The notes: a model not told the origin generated them from the sequence alone. 64,000 bases of DNA from Minisyncoccia bacterium (GCA_038249055.1 JBBRWS010000006.1:927-64926), one strand, 5' to 3'. Counted from the stretch's first letter, positions 38,873-59,755 are shown. Numbers and translations are program-made.

Positions 38873-39850
38873 TTATTCCCATTCAAATTTTCTTCCAAAA
38901 TGTCCCCACGTGCAAGTATCAGAAAATTTAACAACATCCAATTTCAAGTGATTATGTATCCCCTTTGGAGTTAAATCGTAATCAGTTATTTCTACTTCTT
39001 TTCCATCTATTACAGCCACAGCCATTACTGGCTCACTCTTACCTATTGCATAAGCAAGCTTTGTATATACTTCTTTCGCATTATGCTTCTTTAGTAAGTC
39101 CACAGCTATTTTACGAGCCATATAAGCACCAGAGCGATCTACTTTTGTATAATCCTTACCAGAGAAAGAACCTCCTCCAATTGTAATCTCTGGTCCATAG
39201 TTATCTACTATCAATTTTCTTCCAGAAAGTCCTGTGTCTGCATCAAATCCACCTTGATTCCATTCTCCCGCAGGATTTATAAGATATTCTTCTGATTCAA
39301 TAATATTTTTTACAAGTTCTAAAAGTTTATCGTTTTTAGTATTTTGAAAACTAGCTACGACTGTAGTAACGACACCATTATCTACTGTCACTTGAGTCTT
39401 TCCATCATAAGGATATACTTCAAATATTTTCTGACATAAATTTCGGGCAAGATTATATTCGAGAGGTAAATATGTATCAGTCTCACTTGTAGCATAACCT
39501 TTCATTATTCCTTGGTCTCCCGCTCCACCCGTATCAACTCCTTGTGCTATTTCTGGACTTTGTAAAACTATATTCGACAAAATTTTAAAATCTTTACCTA
39601 CTATTTTTTTTATAATAGCTTCTATGTCTGGATTTGATTTTGAAGTAACTTCTCCATTGATGGCTACCAGATTATGCCCACCCATTACTTCTATAGCACA
39701 ACGACTATTCTTATCTCCTTCTAAATATGCATCTAAAATACTATCCGCAATAAAATCACATATTTTATCTGGGTGCATTGGACTCACAAACTCTGCAGTT
39801 TTTTTACTCATGCTTGATTTATAAGGAAGAATGACTATATAAATCGGCAT
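38873..39850 (-). CDS. metK: S-adenosylmethionine synthetase (short form)
   Basis: Near the N-terminus: FVSPMHPDKICDFIADSILDAYL (the GHPDK motif). Also GGGAFSGKD. The likely start is the internal ATG (MSKKTAEF..., about 39811). Total length is about 312-325 aa. Confidence 0.8.
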   Translation of the reverse strand: MPIYIVILPYKSSMSKKTAEFVSPMHPDKICDFIADSILDAYLEGDKNSRCAIEVMGGHNLVAINGEVTSKSNPDIEAIIKKIVGKDFKILSNIVLQSPEIAQGVDTGGAGDQGIMKGYATSETDTYLPLEYNLARNLCQKIFEVYPYDGKTQVTVDNGVVTTVVASFQNTKNDKLLELVKNIIESEEYLINPAGEWNQGGFDADTGLSGRKLIVDNYGPEITIGGGSFSGKDYTKVDRSGAYMARKIAVDLLKKHNAKEVYTKLAYAIGKSEPVMAVAVIDGKEVEITDYDLTPKGIHNHLKLDVVKFSDTCTWGHFGRKFEWE

Positions 39851-40165
39851 CCTGTTAAATAAGATTTAACAGGGTTGATTAAAATATAATACGCTTCGCT
39901 CCTTTATTTTAATTAAAAAATTCCTCATAATGAGGAAAGATATAGATGACTAGTCTTATCTTTCCATAATAATACACTTGCATTATTTGGCTGGATTTAG
40001 CACCTTGCTTTCGCGGGTTGCTGATGGGTCATTGAGCCAGTTGCTCTCGCCATACTCTTGATAACTAACTATTTAGTTGTAATTTTATTATAGCATAATT
40101 TTATAAACAAAAATATTTCCATAAAAAAAATAACGAGGATATATCCTCGTTATTTTTTTATAATA

Positions 40166-40396
40166 TTAATTTTTCCATTTAACTTGAAATTCAAGTTCTT
40201 CTTCTTTTTTCCCTTTTTCATGTTCAATGTTTATAATCGCATCTTTGGGAACAGTTATTTTTCCACCTGCTACTTGAATAGAAAAACTTTTACCTGATTC
40301 TAGAGAGTCAGCTAAACGACGTAATTTTTTAATAAATTCTTTTTTAGAATAAACTTTTTCTATATCTCTTGTTTTAAATTTTTTTATCATATACAT
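40166..40396 (-). CDS. Amphi-Trp domain-like small protein
   Basis: 76 aa. The C-terminus is ...HEKGKKEEELEFQVKWKN, and SFSIQVAGGKITVPKDAIINIEHE resembles the amphi-Trp family layout. Confidence 0.4.
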   Translation of the reverse strand: MYMIKKFKTRDIEKVYSKKEFIKKLRRLADSLESGKSFSIQVAGGKITVPKDAIINIEHEKGKKEEELEFQVKWKN

Positions 40397-40426
40397 ATAT
40401 TACCATAAAATATTGGTAATTAATTT

Positions 40427-41503
40427 TTATAATATTTTATAGAATACCTTAATTATTAAATATAAAATATAATCAAACCATTTCATCTTATAAGTTTTTG
40501 TATCAAAAATCACAACATCTTTTGCCCATTTTTTTATAATTTCTGAAATTTTATGAATGGCAATAGGTTCATTAAAAAAAATACCAACTTCTGAGTTTAA
40601 TTCAAATGATAAATAGTCCAGATTATTAGAACCTACAATTGCCTCCTTGCTATCTATTACCATTATTTTTGCATGATTCATTTGAGGTTCTAGATAAAAA
40701 TTTATACCAAGTTTTGATAACTTATGCATATAAAAATGATTTACTCTATCAATAAAATAACTATCTGTATTTCTAGGCACCAAAATATCAACAGATACTC
40801 CTCTTAAGCTTGCCTGATGCAACGCTCCTATTAGCCAACGTTTTGGCATTAAATATGGAGTTACTATAGTGATACTTACTTTTGCATGAGACAAATGTTT
40901 TTTGTAAATCTTTTTTAAATTATATTTATTTTTAATTGGAGAATGCTCTACAAGCCAATCATGTAAAGTGTCTTTGAAAATTTTACTTTTATTATGAATA
41001 AGGATTAATGAGTCCTTTCCTCCACACTCAGCATAAACTTTAGCAAAAGATTTTACTATAAAAAAGACAAGCTGTCCCTTTACCTGAACCATCAAATCAT
41101 CCCAAAGAGATGCACTTTGGTGAAAATTTACTCCTCCAATAAATGCAATTTTTTCATCAACAATTAAAATTTTACGATGAGTTCTATGTAAAAAATAACT
41201 TTGAAAAATTAATTCTACCCCTGCTTCTTTGAGTCCAAAAATAACTTTATTACTTAAGCTATAACTTCCAAAGAAATCCAAAATAACTTTAACCCGGATT
41301 CCATTTTTAGCTTTTTCTTTCATTAATTCCAAGAAATTAAAGTCCACCATGTCATCCTGAAAAATATACATTTCAAGGTATATTGATTTCTTAGCAGAAA
41401 ACATTATGTCATACATTGCCTGCCAAGATTTCTGTGAATTCGCAAAAAATTTATAAGGCATAAAGATATTATACACTAAATATTTATTATTAACGGGCAT
41501 CAA
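40427..41503 (-). CDS. Phospholipase D family protein (cardiolipin synthase-like), two HKD motifs
   Basis: HKD1 is HRKILIVDEKIAFIGGVN, HKD2 is HAKIMVIDSKEAIVGSNNLD. Confidence 0.75.
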   Translation of the reverse strand: MMPVNNKYLVYNIFMPYKFFANSQKSWQAMYDIMFSAKKSIYLEMYIFQDDMVDFNFLELMKEKAKNGIRVKVILDFFGSYSLSNKVIFGLKEAGVELIFQSYFLHRTHRKILIVDEKIAFIGGVNFHQSASLWDDLMVQVKGQLVFFIVKSFAKVYAECGGKDSLILIHNKSKIFKDTLHDWLVEHSPIKNKYNLKKIYKKHLSHAKVSITIVTPYLMPKRWLIGALHQASLRGVSVDILVPRNTDSYFIDRVNHFYMHKLSKLGINFYLEPQMNHAKIMVIDSKEAIVGSNNLDYLSFELNSEVGIFFNEPIAIHKISEIIKKWAKDVVIFDTKTYKMKWFDYILYLIIKVFYKIL

Positions 41504-41587
41504 TGTTGAATAAATTTATTATTGACAAACATTAAATATTAATGAATAATCAGAGAAAATAGAAACTTAAAAAGGAAGGAGAGCTAG

Positions 41588-42283
41588 GTGAACAAACCTA
41601 AAATTGCACAGCCAGAGAAAGAAAAATTCGTACTTACACAAGACGATTTCTTGTTTCTCGAAAGAATGTTACTCAATATGGGGTACCGGGAAGAAACTAC
41701 AACTTACTCAAAAAGACTTTTTGAACGTCTCAATCTCATACCTCCAAGAGTAATCACGGGGAGAGAAGCGACTTATATTTATAAAAGTCGAGAAGTTGGC
41801 AACAACTACACAGTTATCATTCATACCACTTATTTGAAAGCATCAAAAAAATGGAGAGATACGAGTACTGACGTTGGATGGTGTCTGATTGTTGAAGGTG
41901 ATCAAGCAAAATATTTTGCAAAGCCATTTTCAAGAACAAAAGGATTCATACTTAAGTTTTTACGTTACGCTTGGGTTACTAAATGGAAAGTAGACCATCG
42001 TCCGCTATGCCCACAGTGCCAAGACTTTATGCACATTGTAAAAAAAGTAGAACCTCGAGGGTATTACTGGGCTTGTCGCAACAATGTACGGCACGACGAA
42101 AATAAGCCAGTTTTCTCACCTTGGGATTTTGGTCTCCCCTTTAAGGCTTCCAAGTTTGTAAGCATTCGGAGGGACTATACAAAAAGGTACAATGACAAAA
42201 ACAAAAAAGAAGGAAAAGTTCCTACTCCTGCTCGTAAAATAAGAAAGCCTTGGGAAATAAAAAAACCTGGAAATCTTAATTAG
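41588..42283 (+). CDS. Hypothetical protein with CxxC...CxxxxxH zinc-finger-like region and basic C-terminus
   Basis: 231 aa. CPQCQDF...YYWACRNNVRHDE. Confidence 0.35.
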   Translation: MNKPKIAQPEKEKFVLTQDDFLFLERMLLNMGYREETTTYSKRLFERLNLIPPRVITGREATYIYKSREVGNNYTVIIHTTYLKASKKWRDTSTDVGWCLIVEGDQAKYFAKPFSRTKGFILKFLRYAWVTKWKVDHRPLCPQCQDFMHIVKKVEPRGYYWACRNNVRHDENKPVFSPWDFGLPFKASKFVSIRRDYTKRYNDKNKKEGKVPTPARKIRKPWEIKKPGNLN

Positions 42284-42295
42284 CGAAATTACAAA

Positions 42296-42331
42296 ATGCG
42301 TGTCGTCACTAGTGACGACACGCGTTTTATT
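42296..42331. terminator. Rho-independent terminator (bidirectional)
   Basis: acgcgtgtcgtcactagtgacgacacgcgttttatt. Perfect 13-bp arms. Confidence 0.8.
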
Positions 42332-42361
42332 GTTTATGGATTCTTGCTATTCTATGATAAT

Positions 42362-43153
42362 TTAATATCTCCTAAAACTTCCTTGCGTGCGCAATACTGG
42401 CTTATAATATGAACTAAATGATTGTCTATTATTATTTTGAATTGAATTTGCTATATTTTTATTCGCATATATATTAGCAACATGTTCATCGACTGTTATA
42501 TTTATTGTCTGACAAGCATATGATAATTTCCCTATTGCAAACTGAACTTCATTTTCATTTAATTTTTCTTGATTGTATTTTTTAATGCATTCAATCAACT
42601 TATTGAGATAAACCACGTTTTCAATTGGTTCTGTTTTTATTTCAGCTTCCCCTGTGAATACAACAATATTATAAAAATTATCTTTAGCAAAAGGCATCAA
42701 ATCTTTCAGCGCCATCAAGTGCCCATAATTTTGATGAATAGGATTTTGAAATTTATATTTAATTGCCCCTGGCATTGATTGTGTCCATGTTGATTGATTT
42801 TTACTACCAAAAATCCACCCTTTTAAATCTTTACTTTCTAAAACAAAAATTCCAAATTTAGAAACAATTATATGATCAATTTGAGTTGACCCATTATTTT
42901 TAGAATTTATAATAATATTATTAAATATAAAATAATCAGTATAACTTAATTCAGCAGCAAGCAGATCTGCAACTTTTTGTTCTCCAGAATTTAAACCTTC
43001 CATATAGCATTTACATGCATGTTTATTTTTATTATTATATCTAATTTTTTGTAATTCGTATGGGAAACTTCTATCTTTAAACAGCCATTTAAAAAACTTT
43101 ATAATCAAATATATAATTATTACATCTAATATCAAATAAAATAATATATCCAT
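42362..43153 (-). CDS. NERD (nuclease-related domain) protein with N-terminal TM
   Basis: N-terminal hydrophobic helix. The NERD core is QIDHIIVSKFGIFVLESKDLKGWIFGSKNQSTW. Confidence 0.55.
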   Translation of the reverse strand: MDILFYLILDVIIIYLIIKFFKWLFKDRSFPYELQKIRYNNKNKHACKCYMEGLNSGEQKVADLLAAELSYTDYFIFNNIIINSKNNGSTQIDHIIVSKFGIFVLESKDLKGWIFGSKNQSTWTQSMPGAIKYKFQNPIHQNYGHLMALKDLMPFAKDNFYNIVVFTGEAEIKTEPIENVVYLNKLIECIKKYNQEKLNENEVQFAIGKLSYACQTINITVDEHVANIYANKNIANSIQNNNRQSFSSYYKPVLRTQGSFRRY

Positions 43154-43270
43154 AATTTAATATTTTTTCATTTGATTATTTATACTGTGTTTCATAATAA
43201 ATATTATAACATAAGTTTATCTCTTGTAGATATAGGCTTCACCTTTATCTACATACAATATTATTAATTT

Positions 43271-43507
43271 TCAAAAATTTAATAATCCTACTTCTTTTTT
43301 GCTAATTCTTTTTTCACAATTTAAACAAAAAAGTTGTTGCGATTCACAACTATCGTCGCCATAAAAATCTTCCCATTGTTTTGTATTTAACTCCAAAGAA
43401 TAATAATGCTTTTCTGTTTGAACAATGCCTACCTTCTCATTAGTATGTTTACAATTTTTGCAAGTATATTTTCTATTTTTCATATTTAATAAATATTGAG
43501 TTTTCAT
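43271..43507 (-). CDS. Small C4 zinc-ribbon protein
   Basis: 78 aa. CKNCKH...CLNCEKR. It overlaps the upstream gene end by 35 nt, which suggests translational coupling. Confidence 0.4.
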   Translation of the reverse strand: MKTQYLLNMKNRKYTCKNCKHTNEKVGIVQTEKHYYSLELNTKQWEDFYGDDSCESQQLFCLNCEKRISKKEVGLLNF

Positions 43508-43961
43508 AATTAGAAATACCTTTATATTTTTTTATTAAAAACAAACATTCTTCATAAGCATCTGCTTTTCCACCGATAAATTCATTTAACCCATATTCTT
43601 CAATTTTTTCACTTTTATACACATCCTCTTTCCATTTATTTCTATAATTAAAAGCTAATTTTTTTATGTGTTTTTCTAATGAATTATTAGTAATTTTTTG
43701 TATAAATCCTTGAGCCATTAATTTAAGAGTTTCTTTTTTTAAATTCTGCAAATTTTCCCAAAGTTCAAAAGTTTGGTATATTTCGTCACCATTAATCATT
43801 TTCCATTCGTCTGGTTCAATTTCTATAAAATCATCGTCTTCTGGTGTGTATTCTTTGCATACAACTAAAAATGGGAAATAAAAATTGGGATGTCTATATA
43901 AATATTTTAAAATTTGTATTGCTAGATCTCTTGATATTTTCATATAAAAAAATAAAATCAT
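43473..43961 (-). CDS. Hypothetical protein
   Basis: 162 aa ORF between the DpnI-like and Zn-ribbon genes. No family recognised. Confidence 0.4.
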   Translation of the reverse strand: MILFFYMKISRDLAIQILKYLYRHPNFYFPFLVVCKEYTPEDDDFIEIEPDEWKMINGDEIYQTFELWENLQNLKKETLKLMAQGFIQKITNNSLEKHIKKLAFNYRNKWKEDVYKSEKIEEYGLNEFIGGKADAYEECLFLIKKYKGISNYENSIFIKYEK

Positions 43962-44008
43962 TAACTTAATAATGATCTGATCATTGATCGAATTTGAATT
44001 AAAGTCAA

Positions 44009-44776
44009 CTACTTCAATTTATATTTACCTGCATCAATAAAATCAAGGTAATTTTTATCTCTTAAAAATTGTAATTGCTGACGAATTTTATCTTTAATGT
44101 GTTTATTTTCTGGATGAATGTTTTTTAATTCAGACTCAAACTTGTATATATCCGCTAATGTAAACTCTTTTTTATTTAAAGAATCAATACAATTCATAAT
44201 GTCTAAAATCCAACCCTTTGCATCTACTTTTTTAATTTTCTTTAAAAAAACTGTTTTTTGCCATTTTTCTAAAACCTCTTTTTTAGAAATCTCTTTACCA
44301 TTTTCAACATAAAAAACCTGTCCTGCTTTTGGTATTTTTGAAAAAATTATATTTGAACCAACCCAACCAGCTCTTCGAGCAGTTTTTTTTAATGGCTTCC
44401 TCTTTTCAATAATTTCTGGAATAAAAAAATGCTTAGGGATGATAAAAAAATCATTTACAAACAATGTTTCTAAATATCCCATAAAAAAGAAATTGGGTTT
44501 ATTTTTAGAACTTATTCTTTCAATCATTTTAGAATAAGCCCCAGCAGGTATAGTTTTTCTAATTTTTCCTTTTTTAGATTTCAATTCAAAATCTTCAATA
44601 CATTTTTTACAATAAAAATCAGCAACTGGCTTATTATTTTCGTATTCTTCAATATTAGTATTTCCACAATTTGGACAATATATTTGTTTTAAAACCCAAT
44701 TTTCACTTATAACTCTTATTTTTTGGGTTTCACTTAAATATCCAATCCCTAGTTTTTTATCTAAAGTTAAATTCAT
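44009..44776 (-). CDS. DpnI-like (Dam-replacing family) methyl-directed restriction endonuclease
   Basis: N-terminal YCPNCGN...PVADFYCKKCIEDFELKSKKGK and NPNFFF, RKPLKKTARRAGW, IRQQLQFLRDK. These strongly resemble DpnI-family proteins as I remember them (recalled, not searched). Confidence 0.6.
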   Translation of the reverse strand: MNLTLDKKLGIGYLSETQKIRVISENWVLKQIYCPNCGNTNIEEYENNKPVADFYCKKCIEDFELKSKKGKIRKTIPAGAYSKMIERISSKNKPNFFFMGYLETLFVNDFFIIPKHFFIPEIIEKRKPLKKTARRAGWVGSNIIFSKIPKAGQVFYVENGKEISKKEVLEKWQKTVFLKKIKKVDAKGWILDIMNCIDSLNKKEFTLADIYKFESELKNIHPENKHIKDKIRQQLQFLRDKNYLDFIDAGKYKLK

Positions 44777-44889
44777 ATATTTTTAAATAATTGTTCAAAC
44801 ATATAATAATCCAATTATACTATTTTTGCTCCATATTCTCAATAATATTTACAACTTTCAAAATATACCAAAAATGCTATTATACACAT

Positions 44890-45489
44890 ATGCTCTATAC
44901 ACAAAAAATTCAACATGCGATTCGGTTCGCTCTTAAAACTCACGAGGGATATCAAAAACAAAAGCGAAAAGGTAAAGATGTCCCCTATATTGTGCATCCT
45001 TTAACAGCCTCAATTATACTTGCATCTGCGGGAGCATCTGAGGATATAGTCATTGCTGGATTACTACATGACACTATTGAAGATAGTATTGAAGAAAAGA
45101 AGGTTACAAAAGAATTGATTGTGAGTAGATTTGGAGAAAATGTTTACAATTTAGTTTTAAGTGTAACTGAACAAGATAAATCTTTGTCATGGGAAGAAAG
45201 AAAAACTGAAGCAATGGAACATATCAAAACTTTTTCAAATGATTCCGTACTATTAAAATCTGCAGATATAATTGCAAACACTTCTGAAATTATTGATGAT
45301 TACAGCAAAAAAGGAGAAGAAGTATTTGAAAGATTTGGAGCCACAAGAGAAAGATTTTTAGAAATGAACATAAAAATAATAGAAACTATTATAAAAAAGT
45401 GGCCAGAAAATCCCCTAGCCGATAGCCTAAAAGATGTATTGGAAAAAATAAAAATAATTGCAAACAATAAAATAATAAATAATTTGTAA
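44890..45489 (+). CDS. Stand-alone (p)ppGpp hydrolase-type HD domain protein (small alarmone hydrolase-like)
   Basis: HEGYQKQKRKGKDVPYIVHPLTASIIL....IVIAGLLHDTIEDS matches the RelA/SpoT HD hydrolase motif. The start is placed at the internal ATG (MLYTQK). The track ORF 5' extension looks spurious. Confidence 0.65.
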   Translation: MLYTQKIQHAIRFALKTHEGYQKQKRKGKDVPYIVHPLTASIILASAGASEDIVIAGLLHDTIEDSIEEKKVTKELIVSRFGENVYNLVLSVTEQDKSLSWEERKTEAMEHIKTFSNDSVLLKSADIIANTSEIIDDYSKKGEEVFERFGATRERFLEMNIKIIETIIKKWPENPLADSLKDVLEKIKIIANNKIINNL

Positions 45490-45513
45490 TATAATTTTAT
45501 TGTTTGTACTGAT

Positions 45514-45548
45514 TCTAAAAAACAACAAATTTATTTGTTGTTTTTTAG
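45514..45548. terminator. Rho-independent terminator (bidirectional)
   Basis: ctaaaaaacaacaaatttatttgttgttttttag. Confidence 0.75.
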
Positions 45549-46043
45549 AATCCTTCCCCGTTTCGTCATTTATGACTCATCAGACAAAATGCACATTTTG
45601 TTACGGGAGCTACAAAAAAGAAAAAATTCTTTTTTGTAGCGTCTCAAATTAATAAATTATATATAATATTTATTAATATAATTAATTTTAGAATTACAAC
45701 CCGCAAAACCCTAGTAGTGTAATCGTACCGTTATCTAGGTTATGCTCATCAATGTATATCGGCTTGAAATGCGCTCGCCGCTTTCATCCACCTCGTGGAT
45801 TACTCATAAAATAGAAATTCTTTCTTAGAAAGAATCACGTATTTCAATATACTCTGCCCAAGTTATTATTGAACCATTATACTCAACTAAATCAGTATCA
45901 GGTCTTAGAATAACTTCAGCTTCTTTTAAATTTTCCATTTAAAAAAAATTGTTTTTTGACGCTGAAAGAATATACTTCTTTCAAGGTTTAAATTGTATCT
46001 GTAAAGATCAACTCATGTATAGTATACCACAAAAATTACTTAT

Positions 46044-46176
46044 TGACAAATGGTCATATAAATATAAAATTCTATTTACCATATTTTGTGCGAGATAGCG
46101 CACAAAATATGTTTTTATAAAATAATATAAAAAAGTATTTAATCATAAAAAACACCGTTAGGTGTTTTTTATGATT
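46044..46176 (+). ncRNA. Candidate small RNA unit: promoter (TTGACA-N16-TAAAAT), a 12-bp-stem 5' hairpin and a Rho-independent terminator
   Basis: ttgaca at 46044-46049 and a -10-like taaaat about 16 nt later. Perfect palindrome atattttgtgcg-agatag-cgcacaaaatat at 46081-46110. Terminator aaaaaacaccgttaggtgtttttt at 46149-46176. No ORF. Confidence 0.35.
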
Positions 46177-46207
46177 TTATTTAAATCGTGAATTTTTTTA
46201 ATAAATA

Positions 46208-47188
46208 TTATTCTTTCTCACAAAAATATATCGGACCATCTTCTAGCCCAAAATAATCTATTTTACTTTTATCTAAGGTAGAAATAAACATATCGGCTTT
46301 AACTTTAAACCCAGCCCCTCTTAATTTATCTGGAAAATCATTTCCGTATAATCTCACATGGTCAAATTGCCAAAAAGCTTTAGTCCTTTCCTCAGGGGAA
46401 ATTATAGAAAAATCTTCATAAGTCTGGGCTCGACTAGTATCAATAGGAACATCTATAATTGCAAAGCCTCCCTTTTTTAATACTCTATAAAGTTCTGACA
46501 TCGCATTTTTATCATTTTCAACGTGTTCTAAAACATGCGAACAGAAAATAATATCAAACGATGAGTCTGAGAATGAAAGATGTGTTATGTCTTCTACTCT
46601 CATTGCGTTATTTTTGTCTATATCAACACTTAAATAATCAATATTCTTATACGATTTAAACAGCTTTGTAATTAATGGTTCTGGTGCAAAATGTAGAACT
46701 TTAATTTGCTTATTTGTTGGAATTACTTTTTTAAGATATAAAAAGAATGATCTATGCCTGGGTTGAGAAAGACAATTTGGACAAGTTGAATTTACATATA
46801 TATGACCATACCCACAATCAAAATCAACAAATTTTTCCCCATACCATCCACATACATTACACTTTACTTTGTATAATTTTGGGAATAAAAAATGCATTAG
46901 AGACAACCAAAAGATATATATTTTTTTAAATAAATTTAAATGATATCTAAAAAAGAAACTTAGAGTTAACCCAAGTACCAAAATAAAAACTTGGACAATT
47001 GGTGGTAAGGCACAGTTTCCATAAAATACTACAATTGTCCCCTTACCTAACGCCCAATTTAAATAGCTTATCTCTATTAAAGAATGAATAATGAGAGCAA
47101 AAAAAAGACCTAAAAATAAATAAGATATCGCATATAATAATAATTTTGTTTTTCTTTTACTATTTTTAATTCTCTTGATTATATCCAT
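46208..47188 (-). CDS. Membrane-anchored class I SAM-dependent methyltransferase with zinc-ribbon
   Basis: N-terminal TMs, then CNVCGW...CPNC. Methyltransferase motifs VLHFAPEP...DIIFCSHVLEHV...LKKGGFAII. Confidence 0.6.
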   Translation of the reverse strand: MDIIKRIKNSKRKTKLLLYAISYLFLGLFFALIIHSLIEISYLNWALGKGTIVVFYGNCALPPIVQVFILVLGLTLSFFFRYHLNLFKKIYIFWLSLMHFLFPKLYKVKCNVCGWYGEKFVDFDCGYGHIYVNSTCPNCLSQPRHRSFFLYLKKVIPTNKQIKVLHFAPEPLITKLFKSYKNIDYLSVDIDKNNAMRVEDITHLSFSDSSFDIIFCSHVLEHVENDKNAMSELYRVLKKGGFAIIDVPIDTSRAQTYEDFSIISPEERTKAFWQFDHVRLYGNDFPDKLRGAGFKVKADMFISTLDKSKIDYFGLEDGPIYFCEKE

Positions 47189-59678: not shown

Positions 59679-59755
59679 CGTGATATAGCTCAGTTGGTAG
59701 AGCACTAAGCCTAAAAAACTCAGAGGTCGGGAGTTCAAGTCTCTCTATCACGACG
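59679..59755 (+). tRNA. tRNA-like gene with canonical acceptor, D and T arms but a 9-nt anticodon loop (CCUAAAAAA) and an A-C mismatch in the anticodon stem
   Basis: cgtgata-ta-gctc-agttggta-gagc-a-ctaag-cctaaaaaa-ctcag-aggtc-gggag-ttcaagt-ctctc-tatcacg-a. The architecture parallels tRNA-Lys/Thr. Terminator at 59797-59829. Confidence 0.5.

Follow-up and report, generated by a model that had tools for sequence, protein, structure and literature searches.

We analysed a stretch of 64,000 nucleotides (nt) of DNA from a Minisyncoccia bacterium (GCA_038249055.1 JBBRWS010000006.1:927-64926), hereafter called the window, around a locus at positions 42362-45489 that encodes an endonuclease of the DpnI family. 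On the minus strand, dpnI is followed by the gene for an acidic two-domain protein, which we call the partner, by the gene for a C4 zinc-ribbon protein and then by a NERD-domain gene, while the gene for an HD protein diverges from dpnI on the plus strand. A first-pass annotation made from the sequence alone had read these five genes as one candidate defence islet. All five open reading frames (ORFs) were found at its coordinates. Its domain calls hold for DpnI, NERD and an HD protein that resembles alarmone hydrolases, and the two small proteins are unassigned, as it had stated. The reading as a single islet of five genes fails. The conserved unit is window 43255-44790, about 1.5 kb, and consists of DpnI, the partner and the zinc ribbon.

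The DpnI enzyme and the extent of the cassette

The boundaries of this unit are drawn by the closest relative, a sister metagenome-assembled genome (MAG) with 83-88% nucleotide identity, which shares only 43255-44790 with the window (blastn, loci L173 and L174). Upstream of dpnI, the sister genome carries different DNA, which is syntenic with window sequence about 26 kb away. The flanks vary, and in this sense the DpnI unit behaves like a cassette. The locus sits in a variable, low-G+C region; the lowest G+C of the window, 0.22-0.26, is found at 43001-45000.

The enzyme is encoded at 44009-44776 on the minus strand and is a 255-aa type IIM (Gm6ATC-directed) endonuclease of the DpnI family, with a PD-(D/E)XK catalytic domain and a C-terminal winged helix. 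The earlier DpnI-like call passes all the profile and structure-sequence tests, including those for the catalytic and methyl-reading residues. In Pfam, the protein matches PF06044 (E 4e-74, profile positions 1-182 of 183) and PF17726 (E 4e-33, profile positions 1-69 of 70), and in PADLOC it matches mREase_II (E 7e-105, positions 1-254 of 256). The crystallised S. pneumoniae DpnI (4ESJ) is matched at E 2e-84 with residues 7-253 aligned, and the identity is about 49% in alignment A2, in which the enzymes of the window and of S. pneumoniae are set beside three homologues from Patescibacteria. D53, E64 and K66 are invariant in this alignment, and we take them, from the structural work on DpnI, to be the catalytic triad. 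Also invariant are the guanine- and methyl-reading residues Q18, N48, R126, L129, R135, W138 and G140, together with K229 and R231 of the winged helix (PMC4117772); the methyl cleft (L129/R135/W138/G140) and the guanine readers (N48/R126) are all kept in the window enzyme. An exact-sequence look-up of the protein matched no record. Judged by its sequence, the window enzyme is a true DpnI orthologue, and it should cut DNA that is N6-methylated at GATC on both strands.

No DNA methyltransferase adjoins dpnI and none is evident within the 64-kb window, where, among ORFs of at least 150 aa, the motif (D/N/S)PP(Y/F/W/H) occurs only in D-Ala-D-Ala ligase. The earlier statement that no cognate methyltransferase lies next to the enzyme is confirmed; the nearby protein with a Methyltransf_11 domain (46208-47188, minus strand) is a generic class I S-adenosylmethionine (SAM) methyltransferase and, by profile, no DNA methylase. 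It is an unusual, membrane-anchored member of that class, with 326 aa, N-terminal transmembrane helices and a CxxC...CxxC motif. GATC occurs 78 times in the window against 137.8 expected (0.57), the strongest depletion of any 4-base palindrome there, and the host is presumed to be Dam-negative.

Probable accessory proteins in the post-dpnI slot

The partner gene follows dpnI on the same strand at 43473-43943. The ORF extends to 43961 and would encode 162 aa, while an alignment of homologues (A1) places the real start at MKISRD, position 43943, which gives 156 aa. The 261 homologues are 60-81% identical to it, with a typical length of 142 aa and a range of about 142-156 aa, and those with a source name all belong to Patescibacteria, including Absconditabacterales, which use genetic code 25. 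An N-terminal alpha/beta domain (residues ~1-65) and a C-terminal helical domain (~87-142) can be distinguished, and either of them was also seen alone in the post-dpnI slot or within other fusions. The family is acidic, with a median isoelectric point (pI) of 4.7 compared to 9.6 for the window DpnI. The partner matched no family in Pfam (52 family members scanned), NCBIfam, PADLOC or PHROG. The AlphaFold2 (AF2) model of the partner has a mean pLDDT of 87, and a Foldseek search with it gave no fold match, the best E values being 1.0 in PDB and 0.8 in BFVD. A profile search of 1.84 billion representatives returned only 141 proteins, all of them from the partner family including its single-domain forms. 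In the viral collections (IMG/VR, GenBank phages and PHROGs) no partner was found, and a phage-encoded anti-restriction protein was rejected as an identity for it, with nothing in IMG/VR or GenBank phages.

The partner is tightly linked to DpnI. DpnI lies directly upstream in 55 of the 62 metagenomic partner loci that have enough upstream sequence, in fixed orientation and usually with a gap of 34-71 nt. A survey of species representatives was also made, consisting of the 80 DpnI loci closest to the window enzyme, none of which is streptococcal; a partner-family ORF is present in 19 of them, always directly after DpnI and nowhere else in the loci. Across six independent contexts the partner is always on the same strand and directly after DpnI, while the other neighbours all differ (TIR_2, AAA_13, Mrr_cat, Fic, SocA_Panacea, SecA). 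The partner is also more conserved than the enzyme. Over 52 distinct cassettes (1326 pairs), the median pairwise identity is 64.1% for the partner and 58.6% for DpnI, and the partner identity exceeds the DpnI identity in 83% of the pairs with a DpnI identity below 65%. The two identities are correlated (rho 0.32).

Code-25 Absconditabacterales also carry the DpnI-partner cassette, for example in GCA_041657585.1 (locus L008, 5153-6426). There, TGA codons occur within the partner and, 14 times in frame, within dpnI, which implies that the cassette has been resident long enough for recoding. The 90-nt spacer of this cassette contains six GATC sites.

The third gene encodes the C4 zinc-ribbon protein. 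Its 78-aa ORF reaches from 43271 to 43507 on the minus strand, and the homologues begin at the second Met (43483), so the protein is 70 aa long from the conserved start (43271-43483). The 35-nt overlap of the two small ORFs that had been noted earlier is present as described and shrinks to 11 nt with the homologue-based start. An overlap of 11 nt with the stop codon of the partner suggests translational coupling. The protein has five close homologues, one of which (P0125) lies 72 nt after a DpnI gene. Relatives also immediately follow DpnI at L070, L016 and L171/L172, and they follow partner variants at L029 and L173, those of L070, L016 and L029 being the more distant ones; the sister MAG keeps the window order of partner, then zinc ribbon. 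The window 78-aa protein matched no family in Pfam, NCBIfam, PADLOC or PHROGs, and its AF2 model (mean pLDDT 71.5, all-beta) had no match in PDB. The first-pass suggestion that the two small proteins could be accessory components is supported by the position of the partner directly after DpnI and by the recurrence of the zinc ribbon in the slot.

Other small genes occupy the same slot. In loci L011-L090, the first 700 nt past the dpnI stop contain at least eight recurrent small-ORF families, none with a Pfam match. Besides the forms described above, they include a diverged 63-aa form of the partner N-domain, two further C4 zinc-ribbon families and several families of 50-70 aa; we refer to some of them by their motifs, MKLKEFIK, YDKIYSYF and FYTxEG...ENxQILG. 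One protein of 210 aa (P0228) joins both kinds of slot gene, with a C4 zinc ribbon fused to the partner C-terminal domain. What directly follows dpnI in L020, L021 and L023, from some Patescibacteria, is a nucleotidyltransferase domain of the Pol-beta type, to which an N6_N4-like DNA methylase seems to be fused. The methylase part is our reading of a sequence cluster and would place a methyltransferase beside a methyl-directed enzyme.

A GATC-containing element and a hairpin ahead of the partner

A promoter-like element that is conserved across loci begins right after the dpnI stop codon (43974-44008, minus strand). It consists of TTGACT at 44008-44003, a 17-nt spacer that ends in GATC (43989-43986) and the -10-like hexamer AATGAT at 43985-43980; GATC recurs at 43982-43979 and 43977-43974. 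The window element therefore reads TTGACT, 13 nt, GATC-AATGAT-C-AGATC, and the general form is TTGAC-N13-GATC-AAnGAT-C; its second GATC either shares bases with the -10 hexamer or comes right after it. The spacing matches that of a sigma-70 promoter and a promoter scan picks the element up; we infer that it acts as a promoter.

The distribution of the element was evaluated with the search pattern TTGA[CT]-N11-15-GATC[AT]A-N1-6-GAT[CT]. Of 66 distinct regions upstream of partner genes, 59 contain the pattern, those of loci without DpnI among them, and it was found 115 times in total on both strands of 2.1 Mb of locus sequence. The window contains a single site, compared with 0.02 expected by chance. 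Among DpnI loci, 28 of the 78 usable ones carry the pattern, and its presence follows the content of the slot: it accompanies 14 of 16 partner forms, all nine zinc-ribbon family A genes (9/9) and the one window-type ribbon (1/1), and it is found with none of the 19 small ORFs coupled to DpnI in translation, their starts lying within a few nt of its stop. The first GATC is invariant over loci with dpnI genes only about 56% identical.

Two versions of the region downstream of the -10 hexamer can be distinguished. In the short version, the ATG stands 5-8 nt past the hexamer, as would be expected for a leaderless mRNA. The long version contains a hairpin. In the window, RNAfold places a hairpin with a T-run at 43946-43978 on the minus strand, with a 9-bp stem at 43955-43978, between the element and the partner ATG. 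The stem of the long version takes in the second GATC, and 89.8% of its cells are paired, compared with 16-58% in slid controls (19 regions). Three pairs of the long-type stems show compensatory changes, and the covariation score is above all of the shuffles (500/500). For the window subtype, the stem sequence differs from locus to locus, yet the stem and the T-run are always there. Support for the hairpin comes only from this comparison across loci. It looks like a terminator or a leader, and the stem followed by the T-run probably ends the dpnI transcripts.

Alternative explanations, flanking genes and possible role

With moderate confidence, we read the locus as a type IIM restriction cassette that carries its own accessory mini-operon. 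In a host without Dam, DpnI would restrict invading DNA that carries Dam methylation. The partner and the zinc ribbon would be transcribed separately from dpnI by a sigma-70-like promoter whose -10 is bracketed by GATC, and the hairpin would serve as the dpnI terminator, with the accessory promoter firing from inside its left arm. The small proteins would then act on or with DpnI, and a modulatory or inhibitory contact of the acidic partner with the basic DpnI is the form that we favour. Lastly, the GATC sites would make the accessory expression respond to how the host DNA is adenine-methylated. In its fullest form, this would turn the promoter between the GATC sites into a methylation sensor for the production of DpnI-modulating proteins (the partner, the zinc ribbon or both), a speculative extension that we regard as rather unlikely.

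Several observations speak against the accessory-operon reading. Promoter-like hexamers are not above chance in the AT-rich window (17 found compared with 13.7 expected), the window hairpin taken by itself is not significant (RNAfold, z -0.58), and the presumed absence of Dam in the host was read from the 64-kb window. About 60 of the 80 DpnI loci have no partner, and no small gene follows drg in Neisseria, so that DpnI can clearly do without it. The profile and fold searches gave no biochemical or structural clue to the activity of the partner, so that its functional tie to DpnI rests on gene order. Lastly, seven partner loci (five distinct) are without DpnI. In these the partner follows a GmrSD type IV enzyme (L131/L134), an N6_N4 methylase with a TdeIII endonuclease (L149), a Schlafen-type helicase (L151), a type I HsdS (L157) or, in L135/L136, 78-aa and 208-aa unknowns that have no defence-related Pfam match, with a SWIM zinc-finger protein further upstream. 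Because of these loci, the partner may be a general restriction-island passenger.

The alternative that survives best takes up this point. The partner and zinc ribbon would be independent defence, anti-defence or selfish passengers, which bring their own promoter and lodge by preference 3' of restriction genes without a tie to DpnI. The restriction genes of the DpnI-less loci agree with it, as do the promoter element that accompanies the small gene there, the at least eight unrelated small-ORF families in the post-DpnI slot, and the fact that partner domains are found singly and in other fusions while DpnI is commonly without a partner. Nevertheless, a linkage of 89% to one enzyme family, in fixed orientation and at 34-71 nt, speaks against it. 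At least one DpnI-less locus is visibly derived, since the last ~35 nt of dpnI persist in L131. Also, the invariant core of the element is GATC, the site of DpnI itself, the divergences of partner and DpnI correlate, and the partner is absent from viral collections. We consider independent passengers unlikely, though worth keeping in mind.

A second alternative concerns the element. An ordinary repressor, or the small proteins, could bind a palindromic operator (TTGATCAA / TGATCA) of which the GATC pair is just the centre; the agreement with the DpnI site would then be a coincidence, with no methylation sensing involved. The GATC sites are indeed embedded in the longer palindromes TTTGATCAAA and AATGATCAGATCATT, controller (C) proteins with palindromic operators are standard in restriction-modification (R-M) systems, and the second GATC is changed to GATT in several loci (L017, L029 and L035-L037). 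However, the same element stands before three unrelated small-protein families, which makes autoregulation by each of them unlikely, and the partner is acidic with no recognisable DNA-binding fold. The first GATC is invariant despite the ~56% dpnI identity, in sequence where GATC is otherwise depleted. We regard such an operator as quite unlikely.

The original proposal that DpnI, the two small proteins, NERD and the alarmone hydrolase form one co-functioning defence islet, perhaps with alarmone signalling, is very improbable and is largely refuted by the lack of co-localisation: all its domains are real, defence islands often contain NERD proteins, no part of the window is lower in G+C and other DpnI-partner cassettes adjoin the defence-type genes TIR_2, Mrr_cat, Fic and SocA_Panacea, but a phmmer search found no homologue of NERD, HD or the 231-aa, PLD and amphi-Trp proteins described below within 4 kb of about 85 other DpnI loci, neither the NERD block nor the same DNA upstream of DpnI is present in the sister genome, the 231-aa family occurs in non-defence contexts, and no alarmone synthetase is adjacent. 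Co-localisation in other genomes was thus found for DpnI with the two small genes and not for NERD and HD. The comparison with PADLOC gave a similar division, in which the DpnI gene is recognised as a system component, the only one at the locus, and NERD and PLD are matched only at domain level. The suggestion of alarmone signalling is not supported either; nothing ties such signalling to the locus.

We therefore describe NERD, the 231-aa protein, PLD, amphi-Trp and the alarmone hydrolase as unrelated genes in variable flanks. The NERD-domain protein (42362-43153, minus strand; PF08378, E 1.6e-29) has an N-terminal hydrophobic helix. Its PADLOC matches are weak ones, to the NERD part of PglW and to a NERD+UvrD candidate (E 4e-5 to 7e-5), and it reaches 37.9 bits with NCBIfam MAD6, for which the cut-off is 460. 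It may well have a defence function of its own; the NERD protein ZwsA has been described as an anti-RNA-phage endonuclease (bioRxiv 10.64898/2026.04.06.716636). The gene belongs to a variable block at 40101-43254, comprising NERD, the 231-aa protein, a PLD/cardiolipin-synthase-like protein and amphi-Trp, with blastn breakpoints at 43255 and 40100. In the sister genome, about 210 nt stand in place of this 3.15-kb block, before the SAM riboswitch and metK. The riboswitch (RF00162, 51.5 bits; 39953-40067, minus strand) precedes metK (38873-39850) on the conserved side of the indel.

Within the block, the 231-aa protein (41588-42283, plus strand) shows a C4 zinc-ribbon motif and no domain match. 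It has 37 homologues at 38-89% identity, of which the few with source names appear to be Patescibacteria. These homologues occur in unrelated, non-defence contexts, and a second module of NERD, the 231-aa protein and PLD was rejected on this ground. The PLD protein (40427-41503) was considered as DrmC of a DISARM system and rejected, with 61 bits for NCBIfam DrmC against a cut-off of 133 and no Drm partners nearby; its best matches are cardiolipin synthases at 137 bits, also under their cut-off.

On the other side of dpnI, the HD protein (HD_4, E 6e-16) is encoded on the plus strand by an ORF that runs from 44791 to 45489. Its real start is probably the ATG near 44890 (MLYTQK...), which gives about 199 aa (44890-45489). 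It shows IVHP...LLHDTIED with the H...HD metal motif, and its solved relatives are the small alarmone hydrolases 7QOE (E 1.4e-25) and 7QOC (E 1.7e-20) and MESH1 (E 1.8e-9). No alarmone synthetase or toxin adjoins the gene, whose neighbours are DpnI and an ORF-free stretch of about 700 nt. This stretch (45490-46207), which separates the HD gene from the Methyltransf_11 gene, contains no ORF above 50 aa and no Rfam match at the gathering score; a degraded gene, a leader and an RNA are possible readings of it. Elsewhere in the window, ARAGORN predicts a tRNA-Phe at 59679-59754 (plus strand) with the anticodon AAA instead of the usual GAA; the presence of a tRNA was confirmed by Rfam.

When compared to known systems, the closest precedent is the pneumococcal DpnI cassette, which consists of the endonuclease gene dpnC and of dpnD, a gene of unknown function (PMC4471560). 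The enzyme belongs to the same family, its recognition residues are kept in the window DpnI, and in both cases the endonuclease is followed by a small gene with no methyltransferase. The window differs in the addition of a third gene, the zinc ribbon, and for the S. pneumoniae cassette we found no description of a GATC-bracketed promoter with a hairpin. The Pfam profile DpnD-PcfM (PF14207) had no match at E <=1 in 52 partner members or in nine other slot ORFs. The partner would thus be a positional analogue of DpnD without recognisable kinship, as judged by the Pfam profile. Drg/NmeBII of Neisseria is another Gm6ATC-specific endonuclease of the DpnI family, found in a Dam-negative host as a low-G+C insert (PMC4269198). 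Unlike the window cassette, it is a single gene inserted in dam, and it has neither the GATC promoter element nor a small ORF behind it. It was the only DpnI relative found in plasmid and phage collections.

Other likenesses are more general. As in R-M systems with C proteins, a small gene with its own conserved regulatory site is linked to a restriction gene, but the window partner is acidic and has no helix-turn-helix. A GATC that overlaps the -10 hexamer is the classical way in which a promoter reads adenine methylation, for example in the Dam-sensitive pIN of IS10. The window differs from this type in that the host is presumed to be unmethylated, and the methylation signal would have to come from a foreign Dam or a former Dam-positive host. 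The zinc ribbon recalls the Lar-type restriction-alleviation zinc ribbons (PF14354), which are also small C4 proteins genetically tied to a restriction enzyme. A sister zinc-ribbon family reaches this profile only below threshold (E 0.08, 13.6 bits, cut-off 28.6) and the window protein has no match, so the resemblance is one of analogy and not of membership. No literature on DpnI accessory genes in Patescibacteria was found. What is new here is an accessory protein family and a recognition-site-based regulatory element on a known type IIM cassette.

DpnI is among the most widely used enzymes of molecular biology, and we know of no function assigned since 1986 to dpnD, the second gene of its natural cassette. 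The first-pass defence islet is corrected to three genes that belong together, and the locus brings to light a strongly conserved accessory family of wide occurrence, together with a regulatory element made from the enzyme's own recognition site. The general question behind it is how modification-dependent enzymes change hosts, or meet incoming methyltransferases, without killing the cell. If the methylation sensor proposed above were true, the cassette would hold a safety or establishment switch that restrains DpnI on entry to a Dam-methylated genome or when a foreign Dam marks the chromosome; alternatively, the methylation switch would release DpnI for abortive infection. For a modification-dependent enzyme, such a sensor would play the part that controller-protein timing plays in classical R-M systems, and it would explain the second gene of DpnI cassettes.

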